A DNA stretch of 64,000 bases from Clostridiales bacterium (GCA_015069415.1 SVIQ01000001.1:158709-222708); one strand, 5' to 3'. Shown: positions 3,672 to 8,510, counted from the first letter of the stretch. Numbers and translations are program-made. Notes: generated from the sequence alone by a model not told the origin.

Positions 3672-3862
3672 AATCTCTCCTTTTAATTTGATTGTGTAAT
3701 ACTCGTATTGAAACGAGCAAATTAAAGGTGGTTATATCGTTAGATATAAATCCACTTAAAATTTGATTGTTTAATGCTTGCGTTTTAACAAGCGGATTTT
3801 TAGGAGTTAATATATCGTTAGATACAATCTCTCCTTTTAATTTGATTGTGCAATACTCGTAT
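3672..3862 (-). repeat. Tandem array of about three ~77-nt units in the aspS 5' UTR; the outer units share a 37-nt repeat with one mismatch that includes the Shine-Dalgarno
   Basis: 3672..3708 and 3826..3862 both read aatctctccttttaatttgattgtg[t/c]aatactcgtat. A degenerate middle copy lies around 3751..3776. An inner repeat tatatcgttagata occurs at 3733..3746 and 3811..3824. Confidence 0.85.
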
Positions 3863-3871
3863 CATTAAGAA

Positions 3872-4098
3872 AAATAAAAAATCCCAATGTACTTTGTACA
3901 TTAGGACGAAAATCTTTCCGCGGTGCCACCTAATTTGCTAAAAAATTTAGCCTCTTATTTTGCTTTTGCAAAACTCAAAAGTGTCCTTCATTTTAGCATC
4001 ACTAGTAGGTTCACACTATCTCTACTTCACTTTGAGGTCAAACTAAAACTACTCTCTTTCTCAACGTTTGCATTAAGATGTCTTGATGTTACCATCAT
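3872..4098 (-). promoter_or_regulatory. T-box riboswitch leader (Asp specifier GAC) controlling aspS
   Basis: On the minus strand the T-box sequence is AAATTAGGTGGCACCGCGG (plus 3919..3940). A stem I AGAGAGTAG motif is present. Candidate specifier GAA-G-GAC-A has its GAC at plus 3983..3985. The terminator cctaatgtac-aaa-gtacattggg plus U-run is at 3871..3906. Confidence 0.85.
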
Positions 4099-4218: not shown

Positions 4219-4320
4219 CTTGTAAATATCTTGGCAAGGAAAAACCAAGTAAATAAAACCGCTAAACAAGGAGGACCATTATGGGATGCTAATTTAGGAC
4301 GAGGGCTTTTGCCCTCATAT

Positions 4321-4396
4321 GCTGATGTGGCACAGTCGGTAGCGCACTGCCTTGGTAAGGCAGAGGTCACGGGTTCAAGTCCCGTCATCAGCTCCA
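4321..4396 (+). tRNA. tRNA-Thr (anticodon GGU)
   Basis: Cloverleaf read by eye: acceptor GCTGATG/CATCAGC, anticodon arm CTGCC-TTGGTAA-GGCAG, T arm ACGGG-TTCAAGT-CCCGT, encoded CCA. The D stem has one A-C mismatch. Confidence 0.85.
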
Positions 4397-4398
4397 TG

Positions 4399-4425
4399 AA
4401 GCACAATATAATTGTGCTTTTTTTA
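4399..4425 (+). terminator. Rho-independent terminator after tRNA-Thr
   Basis: aagcacaat-ata-attgtgctt followed by tttttt. The stop codon of the convergent S-subunit gene starts at 4426. Confidence 0.7.
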
Positions 4426-5529
4426 TTAATTAGAAACATGTTTTGTCTGTTTTATTATCTCATCTTTATATTTAACAACATCTTTAATTACTAACTTTTC
4501 AATTGCTCTAATGTATTCTTCCATATAGTTATAATCAGGATTAATTCCATCAGCAGTAGGTAAAGAAACTTCAAAGTTAAGTGCTAATTTTCGATTAAAC
4601 TTATTTGCATAATCAAAATTTTTACTTAATGCCACATTTTTAAAAACAGTCATAAAATATTGTAAGGATTTTCCATTCCATAAGTCATTTAACGGATACA
4701 TTCCTTGAACATGACTAAACCCGATAAAATCATTAGGCTGATAAAATATTGAATCTGCTGTAGTAGTATCAGAAAAAGTAATAATCCCACCCTTTTCATT
4801 TGGTTTTAGATTAGAATAGCCTCCTATGCCATTATTATTGCTTGTATTTGCAACAACTGGAGTTACTCCATCTTTTGATAGTAAATCAGAATTGTTAATA
4901 CCATATGTTTTTGTTGGATGAATGTCAAATAAGTTACTCACTTTGTAGATTTTGAATTTTTTTGTTGCATTGAGTATTGATATATCATGATCATCTAAAC
5001 ACCAATCATTCAATCCTGTTGCTGTTAAACATTTATCTAATTTATTTATACGTTCTCTTTCCAATTCATTTATCAGTCTTTCCATATAATTATAATCAGG
5101 AGAGACTCCATCGCTTGAGGGCAAATAAACATAATCCTCTTTTAAAGTTTCTTTTCTTGGATAATTATTATATCCTCCATATCCTATTTTTGAAATAGCT
5201 GAAGCCATGAAGAGTTTTTGTTTGGAACTTAATCCAGGCATTTTCATAACTAAAATATTGTTTGCTAATAAAAATTTCCCTTCATGATAAGTTATTGTTC
5301 CACTATATTCACCTCGAGTAGAAATTGTAAGATCATTTTCGAAAACTTCTTCGTTAGAATAATTATCTGTTGTATAATAATTTATTCCATTATTAATTGT
5401 TATCCCACTAATTACTGGAATTCTACCATTAGCTGGATTAGTAAATCTAGATATCCACTGCTTATTTTTACCATAGACCCAACTATCCACATCAAATAAA
5501 TTACCCAACTTAAATCTTTTATATTCCAT
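4426..5529 (-). CDS. HsdS-like DNA specificity subunit (two target-recognition domains); probable BcgIB-like partner of the upstream nuclease-methylase
   Basis: 367 aa with two variable halves. Each half is followed by a conserved helical spacer: SPDYNYMERLINELERERINKLDKCL and NPDYNYMEEYIRAIEKLVIKDVV. It starts 3 nt after the methylase stop. Confidence 0.85.
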   Translation of the reverse strand: MEYKRFKLGNLFDVDSWVYGKNKQWISRFTNPANGRIPVISGITINNGINYYTTDNYSNEEVFENDLTISTRGEYSGTITYHEGKFLLANNILVMKMPGLSSKQKLFMASAISKIGYGGYNNYPRKETLKEDYVYLPSSDGVSPDYNYMERLINELERERINKLDKCLTATGLNDWCLDDHDISILNATKKFKIYKVSNLFDIHPTKTYGINNSDLLSKDGVTPVVANTSNNNGIGGYSNLKPNEKGGIITFSDTTTADSIFYQPNDFIGFSHVQGMYPLNDLWNGKSLQYFMTVFKNVALSKNFDYANKFNRKLALNFEVSLPTADGINPDYNYMEEYIRAIEKLVIKDVVKYKDEIIKQTKHVSN

Positions 5530-5532
5530 AAA

Positions 5533-7590
5533 CTACTCCATCTTTAATATACAAGACATCTTCCACGCCAAATAATCAGATATAGTCTTTTTAAAATCTT
5601 CCATTTGAGGAGCTGTGTCAACTTTTTTATGTTGAGAAAACGTCCAGTCATTACCTTCTAATGATATTGTGTCTTCTATGTATAAACCATTTTCTTTTGT
5701 GTAGTAATTTGTTTTTGGTTTTTTGCCTAAAATCAGCGATTCTATTTCTTCGTATCTTCCTTTTGCATTGTCTGTATCTCTCAAATTCACTTCCTGACTA
5801 GACTTCTTCCTATTTTGCCTTGTATAACCATCTTCTGAAAAATCTATAAATTTAACTAAATCATCTTGTTCATGCGGTCTATTGACTTTAAATAAATATA
5901 TAGCAGTCTGAACTGAAGATTTTCCACAAAAGATATCTGCCATATGTATTGATGCACACAATGTATTGTTTTTTAAAATTCTTTTTGTATAAGGCAATCC
6001 ATTTCCTGAACCTGCATTTTCTTGAATTAGAATACATGCATAACCTGTTGTCATTTTTGAAAGAGCTTCTTCCACAAAATTAAATCCTTTACCCAATGCT
6101 GAATATGGTGGATTTAATAAAAATACCGTTGCCGGGAAAGTGGAGGACACACCCGAATATCTATGACCATCTCCATAAACCATATTTGAAGAACCATCAC
6201 CCATTAATATCATATTTAATATTGCTAGAATATATATATTGCCCAAAATTTCAACACCAAGTAATTGATTTTGTTTAATTTGTGTAATTTTTTCATTTAG
6301 CTTGTCAGTATCTTTTATTTTTTCATGGGCATCTTTAATCATAATATCCATGGCTGACACTAAAAATCCACCTGACCCCATAGCTCTGTCCCATACAAAA
6401 GAATTCATATCTGTCCTTGCAAGTTTCGCCATAAGTCTTGTCACATATCTAGGTGTTAATACAACATCATTTGCAATATCGTTTTCTATAGATACCCAAT
6501 CATTTAAAGAATTCAAAATTTTGCCAGTAAAATCTAAACGCAAATTACTTTCAAGGCACGGTATAATATCCTTATTAACCTGATCAAATAAACCTTTTAA
6601 AATACTTTCACCGTTAACAGGCTTCCACAAAATAGATTTTTCAAAAACAGGATTAAGTAAACTGCATATCATTTTAACTTTATCATTTGAACAATTTTTT
6701 TTATTTAAAAATCCTTTTATTCTTTTTATAATTATTGTTCCATCATTATCATCTTTATCATCATTCCCCTTAAAATCAAAGATATTTAATGGAGCTAAGT
6801 ATTCAGTTTTTAAACTCGCCATTATTAGCCCACAAAATAAGTATAATTTCTCATTGGTTGACAATGCAGTTTTTAATCTATCATTATCATATAAACTTTG
6901 GTGTATTGACTTAATTTTTTGTTCTAATGTTACTTCTGCTTTTAAAGTCATTTGTTCAATTTCTTTTTCAGTCAAAATTAATTTATCTAATATTTCACAA
7001 AGTTTTTCAGAGTTTGAAAATTTTAATAAAGACAAATCATCATCTAATTCCATAATATGCTTTGGCAACCTATTGTTTTTTGTTGATATATAATATGCCT
7101 TGCATTCAGAATTCTTCACGCTTCCATCAACATTTAATTCTGTACCATTAATTCCTATTGCAATAACTTCATTATATGCATTACTATCCAATATAGCATT
7201 TGCGTAATGTATTGCTCCGTTGACAGCATAATTAACCACACTTGAATAATTAGCTTCTCCTGCTTTGTGTTTAATATTTCCAAATTTATCTTTAGTATCA
7301 GCAGAATAAAAAGTAACACCCTCAATTAAACCATATTTAGTTAATTTTTCCAGTTTACCCTTTTCTCCCTTTGCTTCAATCATTATAGGGATTCTCCTTG
7401 CATGCTTGTTTTCAAACAAAACTTGAATATCTGGGAAATTATTTCCGCTCCCCCCAGATTTAGAGTTACTATCTTTTAAAGCCTTTGTAATTGTTGGATT
7501 TATTTCTTCAGTTTTACCGTAATGTCGAATACCAAAATTATCCAAAATCTTTTTAAAATGTTCTTCAACTTTTTCTTCGATACTTCTCAT
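5533..7590 (-). CDS. Fused PD-(D/E)xK-like nuclease / gamma-class N6-adenine DNA methyltransferase (type IIB BcgIA-like or type IIG-like)
   Basis: 685 aa. The N-terminus has FPD(54)...IMIE(72)AK(74)G, encoded at 7369..7431. The SAM motif VWDRAMGSGGFLVSA precedes the catalytic LLNPPYS. No HsdR or helicase gene is in the window. Confidence 0.75.
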   Translation of the reverse strand: MRSIEEKVEEHFKKILDNFGIRHYGKTEEINPTITKALKDSNSKSGGSGNNFPDIQVLFENKHARRIPIMIEAKGEKGKLEKLTKYGLIEGVTFYSADTKDKFGNIKHKAGEANYSSVVNYAVNGAIHYANAILDSNAYNEVIAIGINGTELNVDGSVKNSECKAYYISTKNNRLPKHIMELDDDLSLLKFSNSEKLCEILDKLILTEKEIEQMTLKAEVTLEQKIKSIHQSLYDNDRLKTALSTNEKLYLFCGLIMASLKTEYLAPLNIFDFKGNDDKDDNDGTIIIKRIKGFLNKKNCSNDKVKMICSLLNPVFEKSILWKPVNGESILKGLFDQVNKDIIPCLESNLRLDFTGKILNSLNDWVSIENDIANDVVLTPRYVTRLMAKLARTDMNSFVWDRAMGSGGFLVSAMDIMIKDAHEKIKDTDKLNEKITQIKQNQLLGVEILGNIYILAILNMILMGDGSSNMVYGDGHRYSGVSSTFPATVFLLNPPYSALGKGFNFVEEALSKMTTGYACILIQENAGSGNGLPYTKRILKNNTLCASIHMADIFCGKSSVQTAIYLFKVNRPHEQDDLVKFIDFSEDGYTRQNRKKSSQEVNLRDTDNAKGRYEEIESLILGKKPKTNYYTKENGLYIEDTISLEGNDWTFSQHKKVDTAPQMEDFKKTISDYLAWKMSCILKME

Positions 7591-7844
7591 TTCTCTTCTC
7601 CCTTTTTAATAACCGTTTTTGATTTTTTGTTTTTTAATTTAACATTTATATTGTTTAAGTTTGTTAAAACAACTTGTCCATCTTCTACATAAAAAGCCAA
7701 ACTATCACCAGATTCAACTTGTAAAATATCTCGTATCGTTTTTGGTACAGTAATTTGACATTTAGATGAAAGAATAACTTCTTTTATTTTTTGCATTTCA
7801 CTACTCCATTTTTCTTTACTTTCTTTACTTTTTAAGTATAGCAT
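7587..7844 (-). CDS. AbrB/SpoVT-family DNA-binding protein (likely start at 7796, 69 aa)
   Basis: The swapped-hairpin-type sequence CQITVPKTIRDILQVESGDSLAFYVEDGQVVLTN is present. GGAG lies 7 nt upstream of the internal ATG at 7794..7796. The stop overlaps the methylase start in an ATGA arrangement. Confidence 0.75.
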   Translation of the reverse strand: MLYLKSKESKEKWSSEMQKIKEVILSSKCQITVPKTIRDILQVESGDSLAFYVEDGQVVLTNLNNINVKLKNKKSKTVIKKGEEK

Positions 7845-7913
7845 AAAATAACAACAAATGCAAATAAATAGCTAAAAAACTAGCAAAATTAAATATTGCT
7901 AGTTCACCATTCT

Positions 7914-8510
7914 TTATTCGTTAAACTTTTGACTATATATTTTATCAAAATCCCATCTGTAGTGTAAAACTCTTGTCACATTACCTCTTGTAAGGTTTAA
8001 ATCATATCTAAACTTGTCATAATTTTTATTTATATGTTTAGCAATAAAATCAGCTAGTAAATTATATAATTTCAAACAATAATAATTAAAAGTAAACAAA
8101 AATATTTCATCTATAGCTTCTGCATTACTTTTTTTACTACAACTTATTATAGGCAAAGATTCAAATTCAAAGAACTCGGTTTTACTATGCAACGAAAACA
8201 ATTCCGCATCACAGAAGAAATGTGTAATTAATCCTCTCATCGTTCTAATGTGTTTATATAATTCTTTAATATAGTCATCTTTAATTACTTCATTTATAAT
8301 ATTAACTGTATCCATATATTTTTCATGTTCTTTATATTCTGGGTCCATCCATATTCCGAACAACTTCCATTTTTCTCCAAAAGTTTTTGGATGTTCCACT
8401 TTATGATACCACCAACCAATTTGAATAATTAACCATCTAAGTTGATTAAATATAGATTGCGCTTCACCAATATGTTGATAAATTGATTTTCCTGTTCGCT
8501 GCATAATCAT
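7914..8510 (-). CDS. Hypothetical protein with a possible HEPN-type R-x4-H motif
   Basis: 198 aa, with SD aaaggag upstream. The motif RGLITH (R92..H97) is encoded at 8220..8237. A minus-strand terminator ctagcaa-tatttaatt-ttgctag plus T-run lies at about 7877..7905. Confidence 0.5.
   Translation of the reverse strand: MIMQRTGKSIYQHIGEAQSIFNQLRWLIIQIGWWYHKVEHPKTFGEKWKLFGIWMDPEYKEHEKYMDTVNIINEVIKDDYIKELYKHIRTMRGLITHFFCDAELFSLHSKTEFFEFESLPIISCSKKSNAEAIDEIFLFTFNYYCLKLYNLLADFIAKHINKNYDKFRYDLNLTRGNVTRVLHYRWDFDKIYSQKFNE

Follow-up and report, generated by a model that had tools for sequence, protein, structure and literature searches.

The closest described relatives of the system studied here are type IIB restriction-modification (R-M) enzymes of the 'RM + S' group. 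BcgI comprises an A subunit, with E53 in a PD..EXK motif and a methyltransferase, and an HsdS-like B subunit, in an A2B assembly (PMC3592470); BsaXI is a type IIB enzyme of (RM)2S composition (PMC11997821), and the group of BcgI further includes BveI, Hso63250II and HpyUM (PMC3592470; PMC11997821). Among the regulators of R-M systems, C proteins are Xre-type helix-turn-helix (HTH) proteins with inverted-repeat C-boxes at or upstream of the -35 element, and they both activate and repress (PMC3874152). RptR (RMS-proximal transcriptional regulator), described in 2025, is a small repressor encoded by the first open reading frame (ORF) of type I R-M operons; it acts at 9-bp direct repeats at the -10, is all-alpha (bZIP-like), has TAGCTA palindromes inside three repeats, and comes from Gammaproteobacteria (PMC12255303). 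In this study, we performed a computational analysis of a three-gene operon in a 64,000-nucleotide stretch of DNA from an uncultured, metagenome-assembled Clostridiales bacterium (GCA_015069415.1 SVIQ01000001.1:158709-222708; "the window" hereafter means this whole stretch), in which a small AbrB-like gene precedes the genes of a fused nuclease-methyltransferase subunit (RM) and of a specificity subunit (S). Fused RM enzymes cannot use the order 'methylase first, nuclease later', and to our knowledge little is known about the regulation of R-M systems beyond the classical type II.

Our analysis suggested that RM and S form a type IIB enzyme under an AbrB-fold autorepressor cassette acting through a conserved repeat box, a joint reading that we consider probable from sequence comparison. 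A wider proposal is more tentative: alongside the HTH C proteins and all-alpha RptR, the cassette may represent a further, as yet undescribed structural class among controllers of R-M systems, one that serves as a plug-in autorepressor on type IIB/IIG-like fusions and hsdMS and as a homology anchor for module swaps in the order 198-aa ORF, cassette, RM-S and tRNA-Thr. Literature searches found no AbrB-fold or ribbon-helix-helix (RHH)-type R-M controller, the one AbrB match being an item in a list of references, and as far as this literature goes the AbrB-type cassette looks like an undescribed variant of the R-M controller idea. The features of the locus, counted from the first letter of the window, are the following.

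7874..7904, minus strand: terminator-like hairpin after the 198-aa ORF, 9-bp stem CTAGCAA.../...TTGCTAG and U-run; -13 kcal/mol, z = -3.8
7835..7863, minus strand: sigma-A/sigma-70-type operon promoter, -35 TTGCAT at 7858-7863, 17-nt spacer, extended -10 TGcTATACT at 7835-7843
7811..7828, minus strand: 'AbrB box', two tandem 9-bp direct repeats GTAAAGAAA-GTAAAGAAA, predicted operator from conservation across cassette loci
7804..7807, minus strand: Shine-Dalgarno GGAG of the AbrB-like gene, 7 nt before ATG 7796
7587..7796, minus strand: AbrB/SpoVT-fold protein of 69 aa (MQKIKE...), predicted autorepressor, from PF04014, TIGR01439 and homologue lengths
5533..7590, minus strand: RM subunit, 685 aa, from PADLOC REase_MTase_IIG, Pfam N6_Mtase and invariant motifs
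4426..5529, minus strand: S subunit, 367 aa, HsdS-like, two target recognition domains (TRDs) and two conserved regions, from Pfam Methylase_S and PADLOC Specificity_II
4321..4425, plus strand: tRNA-Thr(GGT) and its terminator, conserved right-hand border of the variable R-M site, from ARAGORN and Rfam

The evidence for a controller begins with the borders of the cassette. Between the window and loci with other RM classes, nucleotide homology was found only over about 7588-7870/7888 (75-86% identity), its two ends being the RM start codon and a point shortly past the -35 element. This cassette of about 290 bp holds the promoter, the 18-bp box, a ribosome-binding site (RBS) and the AbrB-like gene. 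The reverse pattern was seen in two loci (L004 and L005 in our numbering), where only 5510-7608, the RM gene, is shared and the upstream gene is a different one. Moreover, L230 and L231 have the same RM-S module at another genomic site, behind a different promoter (TTGCAA-17-TATAAT); there the homology to the window stops exactly at the box, which is retained 6 nt after the -10.

The best-conserved non-coding block in the cassette is TGTTATACT-n6-GTAAAGAAAGTAAAGAAA; a promoter scan listed TTTGCA-18-TATACT with TG. Across 10 close loci anchored on the box, mean pairwise identity was 100% for the 18-bp box, 97% for the -10 element, 85% for the -35 element, 66% for the promoter spacer, 64% for the DNA upstream of the -35 and 55% from the box to the start codon, and across 17 loci the box was 91% identical versus 42-52% for its flanks. 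In the window the GTAAAGAAA repeats begin 6 nt past the -10 and cover the expected transcription start, which is the position of a repressor site; the distance from the -10 to the start of the box is 4-7 nt in nearly every locus and 11 nt in L065, and the box occurs once in the 64 kb. A first-pass annotation of this sequence had proposed that the small protein binds at 7845-7913, and this expectation was not borne out: that region consists of the -35 element and the upstream terminator hairpin, and the conserved candidate operator is 7811-7828. No conserved element was found at an activator position, upstream of or overlapping the -35, in the cassette loci. The leader RNA with the box is unstructured, and GGAG or GAGG stands at the same RBS place throughout the cassette loci. 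Near-identical terminator hairpins precede the cassette in L228, L058, L146 and L229; the one in the window, which a simple terminator scan missed owing to its 9-nt loop, is predicted to shield the cassette promoter against read-through from upstream. A 67-aa Xre-type HTH gene, together with a divergent YpsA gene, lies just upstream of this hairpin at L058:5650-5853, L146:4650-4853 and L229:913-1116.

The genomic context of the AbrB-like gene was taken from 11 contig look-ups (one by the window's RM protein and 10 by AbrB-like proteins of the family that is 64-100% identical) and seven metagenome loci. An N6_Mtase gene directly follows the close homologues, overlapping or at a gap of 1-4 nt, in every locus examined, and no toxin gene was found beside any of them; the place just downstream, where a MazF, PIN or YhaV gene would mark a type II antitoxin, is held by an R-M gene in every close-family locus examined. 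Behind the AbrB-like gene were RM+S pairs of five classes (RM of 595, 610, 621, 685/686 and 750 aa), one 787-aa N6_Mtase-Methylase_S fusion and one split arrangement of 215 aa plus 450 aa. Between cassette loci the AbrB-like proteins are 54-87% identical, versus 22-34% for RM and 22-37% for S. All RM classes behind the cassette carry an N-terminal (P)D/E...E-x-K motif and score best with PADLOC REase_MTase_IIG. The chromosomal contexts number at least six, among them Fic with HATPase/Z1, a phage-integrase neighbourhood, YpsA with an HTH gene, PFL with pyrophosphatase, and tRNA-Thr/aspS. Some of these modules lie amid defence-type genes, including Fic, HATPase_c_3 with a Z1-domain protein, and ApeA/HEPN (L049:1-5800, L145:1-4800, L227:86-1477), and these surroundings point to defence islands.

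A metagenome scan with the AbrB alignment gave 80 loci, mostly generic VapB-type relatives, which we used as a negative control. Allowing up to two mismatches, only seven of them carry the box, 20-60 nt upstream of the AbrB-like ORF, and it is absent from all of the about 55 AbrB-type antitoxin loci that are overlapped at -4 by PIN-like ORFs of about 130 aa. In L062, L063, L064 and L088 the AbrB-like protein (43-51% identical) stands before a classical type I hsdM with the box kept; hsdS also lies just downstream in L062, L064 and L088, and L062 and L088 match PADLOC MTase_I at E 1e-224 to 1e-239. L065 (150-1874) encodes a 72-aa relative with three tandem box units (GTAAGGAAA GTAAAGAAT GTAAGGAAT), followed by genes for a TrkA_C protein and a Na+/H+-exchanger, a KhtT/KhtU-like operon of the K+/H+ antiporter type. 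L120 is a stand-alone AbrB-like gene with the box, and L066 runs off its contig. In L066, L088 and L120 both repeat units read GTAAGG, a concerted half-site change. The subfamily S-K-[C/G]-Q-I-T-V-P-K and its repeat box thus move as a pair between different promoters and operons, and 16 of the 18 resolved cases of this combination are R-M operons. A first-gene position with its own conserved box was found before unrelated R-M systems, that is, five RM+S classes, an RMS fusion, a split R/M pair and type I hsdMS.

The small gene itself needed one correction. Three tightly packed minus-strand ORFs (a small ORF at 7587-7844, the 685-aa ORF and the 367-aa ORF) were confirmed in the sequence, as were two features given by the first-pass annotation, the ATGA overlap of the small ORF's TGA with the RM ATG (7587-7590) and the 3-nt gap between the RM stop (TAG) and the S start; GGAG lies within the last codons of the RM gene, and loci identical to the window's are on three JGI contigs. 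The start at 7844, by comparison with homologues, had to be moved. There are 44 database relatives of 64-100% identity, all 66-71 aa and all aligning from MQKIKE, the sole length exception being P0121, the window's own protein, called at 85 aa. Because of these lengths and of the GGAG upstream of ATG 7796, the gene almost certainly spans 7587-7796. The 85-aa ORF was rejected as a real gene on the homologue lengths and because ATG 7844 falls inside the promoter spacer. The last codons of the gene carry the RM ribosome-binding site GGGAG, and the lysine-rich C-terminal tail of the protein is partly dictated by it. The protein scored 28.5 bits with PF04014 (MazE_antitoxin/AbrB; cut-off 24.7) and 29.4 with TIGR01439 (cut-off 28.3), and its family profile retrieved from the PDB the DNA-binding N-domains of SpoVT (2ro5, E 0.002) and then of AbrB-family regulators, AbrB and Abh; by these profile matches it belongs to the AbrB/MazE/SpoVT swapped-hairpin DNA-binding family. 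Foldseek with an AlphaFold2 (AF2) monomer (pLDDT 64) listed AbrB, SpoVT and MazE at the top with E above 0.4, and these non-significant matches were set aside as fold evidence. No relatives were found in IMG/VR viral contigs, and a plasmid search returned one weak match only, a PrlF antitoxin.

As for the enzyme, the RM protein matched Pfam N6_Mtase (E 2e-16) and, below threshold, VRR_NUC over residues 33-82 (E 0.022). The REase-MTase fusion model REase_MTase_IIG PDLC03616 of PADLOC, derived from REBASE, covers it end to end (residues 3-683, E 1.4e-150); the type I methyltransferase models of PADLOC cover only its catalytic core. Its domains, delimited in part from AF2 secondary structure, are a PD-(D/E)xK nuclease at about 1-190 (D54, E72, K74), a helical connector at about 190-370, and a gamma-class N6-adenine methyltransferase with TPR at 379-381, DrAMGSGGF at 401-409 and NPPY at 493-496, following the gamma-class order. 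In 13 homologues of 66-100% identity, P53-D54, E72-A73-K74, the motif-X TPR, motif I (D-x-AMGS-x-GF; G405-S-G-G-F409) and N493-P-P-Y496 are invariant. In RM+S enzymes a tail docks onto the coiled coil of S (PMC11997821), and the helix predicted here at the C-terminus (663-682) is consistent with it. The S protein matched Pfam Methylase_S in two stretches and the PADLOC 'Type II specificity subunit' (Specificity_II) models, and its gene has an internal direct repeat (4519-4569/5080-5130, ...PDYNYME...).

The RM family comprises over 7,800 clusters at E below 1e-5, a very large number. We surveyed it with one genome per species at 45 loci, which span Firmicutes, Actinobacteria, Campylobacterota, Bacteroidota and others, and include Clostridia, Lactobacillaceae, Bifidobacterium, Gardnerella, Eggerthella, Succinivibrio, Campylobacter jejuni, Helicobacteraceae, Paludibacteraceae and Saccharibacteria. 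An S gene lies directly downstream of RM in almost all of them, no other neighbour is conserved, and no helicase gene is conserved near them. No helicase or HsdR domain was found in the window ORFs of at least 450 aa, and the RM N-terminus carries a nuclease motif, not the HsdM_N sequence of L062 and L088. The nuclease and methyltransferase motifs, the lack of HsdR or a helicase within the window, and the two-subunit reading after BcgI A+B had all been put forward in the first-pass annotation, and they stood up to the motif alignment, the search of these ORFs, the fusion and specificity models and the conserved S neighbour; RM+S is accepted as a BcgI-like type IIB enzyme as a working class, supported by these comparisons. 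As an enzyme, it is of a family kind already known, widespread and horizontally spread. In the AF2 model of RM, built on the 13-sequence alignment, pLDDT is 61 and residues 349-502 are below 50. Foldseek (E ≤ 0.001) matched type I and type I-like M subunits (HsdM, PacII), the BREX methyltransferase PglX and BsaXI RM, the last (8w0p_A) being the only near-full-length structural match in the PDB (724 columns, E 5e-5, TM-scores 0.17), and because the methyltransferase domain is poorly modelled this support is weak. PDB sequence searches with the RM protein and family profile found HsdM cores only.

No AbrB-like gene was found upstream of the RM homologues in the 45-genome set, and many of these loci have nothing at the regulator position. 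In L004 and L005 (RM 88% and 86% identical to the window's), a protein of about 105 aa with only weak HTH-like matches overlaps the RM start, and small RHH genes of several unrelated types abut it in at least eight other loci, with RHH_1, TacA1 or NikA-like above cut-off for L006, L021, L027 and L030. The alternative small genes are L004:5687-6001, L005:653-973, L006:3926-4162, L014:1433-1663, L017:3635-3865, L021:304-531, L027:3784-4032, L030:5826-6002, L035:5798-5992 and L043:3895-4206. Small genes of other folds before RM homologues suggest non-orthologous replacement of the controller.

Several other explanations of the small gene and the box were weighed. The box might be a promoter-proximal or leader element (such as an initial-transcribed region or an A-rich enhancer of translation) or be bound by a host factor, and the AbrB-like protein would then control something else or bind at another place: the box would lie in the 5' untranslated region, it is purine-rich like translation enhancers, and its 19-mer is common in AT-rich DNA. 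However, among the 80 AbrB-relative loci it comes only with this subfamily, it is kept behind non-homologous promoters in L230, L120 and L065, and it changes as a repeated protein site does, with the same A-to-G change in both units at three loci and three units in L065; nor is there another conserved non-coding element to serve as operator, and we regard this explanation as unlikely. That the AbrB-like protein is an antitoxin-like inhibitor of the RM nuclease at the protein level, with or without DNA binding, could be argued from its best Pfam match, the MazE/PrlF antitoxin family, from the gene order, ATGA overlap and small first gene, which resemble toxin-antitoxin operons, and from the self-toxicity of RM enzymes. 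Yet the same protein (54-87% identical) pairs with RM proteins only 22-34% identical and with type I HsdM that has no nuclease domain; since its partners are so little related, a specific protein-protein fit is unlikely, and moreover the tail is lysine-rich rather than acidic and toxin-binding, and the protein co-varies with a DNA box. This inhibitor role is judged improbable. A precedent is offered by the C proteins, the known solution to R-M establishment (PMC3874152), whose genes have the same position and translational coupling, and the AbrB-like protein could be a dual activator/repressor switch, needed to turn the operon on, that delays the nuclease in a new host. Against such a switch, to which we give a low probability, the only site lies downstream of a promoter whose extended -10 is close to consensus and whose -35 is good, no conserved element overlaps the -35 or precedes it, and a single polypeptide carries both R and M, which makes it impossible to delay R relative to M.

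It might further be supposed that the small gene is a decayed MazE/VapB antitoxin remnant, beside R-M genes by accident, as AbrB-type antitoxins are abundant in defence islands and most of the AbrB relatives retrieved are VapB-VapC pairs. But R-M adjacency holds in every locus examined and in at least six chromosomal contexts, and the ORF is intact, conserved in length and equipped with its own RBS, promoter and box, with no toxin gene in any locus; as far as comparative data allow, the remnant explanation is refuted, and we leave it almost no weight. The role of controller that the first-pass annotation had raised for this gene, with a MazE remnant as its counter-case, gained support, as gene, promoter and invariant box move together before many R-M systems. 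Regarding the enzyme, RM+S could be a methyltransferase only, or the M2S core of a type I-like system with HsdR elsewhere, the N-terminal domain being inactive: this domain has no significant Pfam or PDB sequence match, the methyltransferase part is HsdM-like, and the HsdR search covered the 64-kb window. The invariance of the PD...ExK triad, the equivalent motif in all four other RM classes, the full-length match to fusion models and the lack of a conserved helicase near the 45 loci argue for an active nuclease instead, and in BcgI the E53A change in the same motif abolishes cleavage (PMC3592470); we regard this alternative as highly improbable.

The reading of RM+S as a type IIB enzyme under an AbrB-fold autorepressor also has points that weigh against it. 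The controller role is argued from comparative evidence, with binding and repression predicted, and the context sample is small (the 11 look-ups and seven metagenome loci). Because it is purine-rich and of low complexity, the box is not diagnostic by sequence alone: its 19-mer was found 79 times in IMG/VR contigs that encode no AbrB-like relative. Part of the box conservation is inheritance, since close cassettes share ancestry. The antiporter operon of L065 and the stand-alone gene of L120 mean that the regulator and box family is not exclusive to R-M. In addition, a fused RM enzyme cannot delay R relative to M, and its need for a controller is not evident. Finally, a PDB profile search with the N-terminal 205 residues of RM gave nothing significant, leaving the nuclease domain without a PDB sequence match, and the AF2 models are of low confidence (pLDDT 61 for RM, 64 for the AbrB-like protein).

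Under this autorepressor reading, the system could work as follows. One promoter (7835-7863) would transcribe the AbrB-like gene, RM and S. The 69-aa AbrB-fold protein would be made first, and RM would be translationally coupled to it through the ATGA overlap and the RBS in the last codons. RM and S would form a BcgI-like type IIB enzyme, probably (RM)2S, in which S reads a predicted bipartite recognition site, the gamma-class domain of RM methylates adenine, and its N-terminal PD-ExK domain cuts unmodified DNA without an ATP-dependent motor, the cleavage pattern being predicted likewise. A dimer or tetramer of the AbrB-fold protein may bind the tandem GTAAAGAAA repeats and block initiation or promoter escape, shutting off its own operon. 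Through such negative feedback the amount of the self-toxic nuclease-methylase would stay low whatever the copy number, and on arrival in a new host a short burst of expression would precede repression. The cassette would be a separable module, recombined onto many R-M genes exactly at their start codon.

The operon lies between the 198-aa ORF, followed by queH, on one flank and tRNA-Thr on the other. The tRNA gene, called by ARAGORN and Rfam at 4321-4396 (+), is followed by a terminator hairpin at 4398-4420 (-10.2 kcal/mol, z = -3.75); because this hairpin ends at 4420, the S stop codon (4426-4428) sits in its T-tail. The inserted defence islet proposed in the first-pass annotation was not borne out. 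No integrase, tRNA-derived att-like direct repeats or GC anomaly was found around the module, so an integrated islet is not supported as such, and a hypervariable R-M site was seen instead, since different RM modules sit behind the same cassette next to tRNA-Thr. L146 and L147 have the order cassette, RM621, S, tRNA-Thr and aspS, L142 has cassette, RM621, S and tRNA-Thr, and L228 has the 198-aa ORF and cassette as in the window (88% over 7568-8341) and then RM595-S. The cassette and the tRNA, which flank the RM-S module, can act as homology arms for its replacement, as judged from these alignments. At a finer scale, the TRD1-coding part of S (5073-5491) is unrelated in L230 (7307-7740) within an RM-S module otherwise 80-82% identical, a swap of half the specificity.

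Some few hundred bases past the complete tRNA-Thr beside the R-M module, L142 (8464-8505) and L146 (8221-8264) hold a partial second copy of its 5' part, which is 42-44 nt long and shows 86-98% identity to window 4317-4360; the window has no such copy. The 198-aa ORF (7914-8510, minus strand) has no Pfam, NCBIfam or PADLOC match, and its 3' part is 88% conserved beside the cassette in L228, which has another RM class. As a member of the system it was rejected, having no family match and being absent from most other cassette loci. Beyond tRNA-Thr are a T-box leader (3899-4073, minus strand; Rfam, 95.6 bits) and then aspS, with a family of 37-nt direct repeats (3672, 3747, 3826, 3944) in the T-box/aspS intergenic region (3672-3980). 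An 847-aa ORF (30122-32665, minus strand) has no Pfam family at E 1e-5 or better, and the window is otherwise rich in housekeeping genes, including tRNA synthetases, gyrase, NrdD and BipA.

If the autorepressor reading is true, a portable autorepressor with an 18-bp operator would explain how self-toxic enzymes are held at a safe level and move from host to host, and a new fold would be added to the short list of R-M regulators. Together with the RHH and HTH genes at the same position, it would imply a common pool of interchangeable DNA-binding folds (HTH, RHH, AbrB) that serves the regulators of R-M systems and type II antitoxins alike. The box with a 66-71-aa AbrB-like gene would then be a simple annotation marker for R-M operons in gut Clostridia, and the pair would be a compact orthogonal repressor and operator for engineering. 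Cassette-anchored replacement of R-M modules beside tRNA-Thr would offer a concrete mechanism for rapid turnover of restriction specificity.

Compared with known systems, the enzyme resembles BcgI and the RM+S group. The window RM has an N-terminal PD..ExK, a helical connector, an HsdM-like gamma-class N6-adenine methyltransferase and a C-terminal helix, with a separate HsdS-like two-TRD subunit, a likeness to the published layout of BcgI, and no ATPase or translocase was found for it in the 64-kb window; the sizes are similar as well (685/367 aa versus 71.6/39.2 kDa for BcgI). Its best PADLOC model, PDLC03616, differs from the model that best fits the other RM classes. It also shares the R-H-M order (nuclease, helical connector, methyltransferase) and the separate S subunit with BsaXI (cryo-EM 8w0p), whose RM, however, is longer (916 aa) and contains 'knob' and 'paddle' inserts that the 685-aa protein is too short to accommodate. 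Unlike the window operon, BcgI and BsaXI are described with no mention of a regulator gene (PMC3592470; PMC11997821).

Like C proteins, the AbrB-like protein is small, encoded first, coupled to the nuclease gene, provided with a conserved box at its own promoter and found before unrelated R-M systems, and autoregulation is predicted for it; unlike them, it has an AbrB fold (swapped hairpin) and not an Xre-type HTH, its conserved site follows the -10 and is built of direct repeats in tandem, only repression is predicted, and the genes behind the cassette are RM fusions and type I systems. With RptR it shares a direct-repeat site conserved together with the protein before R-M systems, and predicted repression of its own promoter, but it is AbrB-fold, comes from Clostridia-type genomes, has the GTAAAGAAA x2 box and stands mostly before type IIB/IIG-like fusions. 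The N-terminal looped-hinge-helix domain and the predicted first-gene autoregulation are as in AbrB/Abh/SpoVT and MazE/VapB, whereas it has neither a toxin partner nor a C-terminal oligomerisation domain of the AbrB/SpoVT kind, and differs from other AbrB-type families in forming a narrow S-K-C/G-Q-I-T-V-P-K subfamily with its own repeat box.

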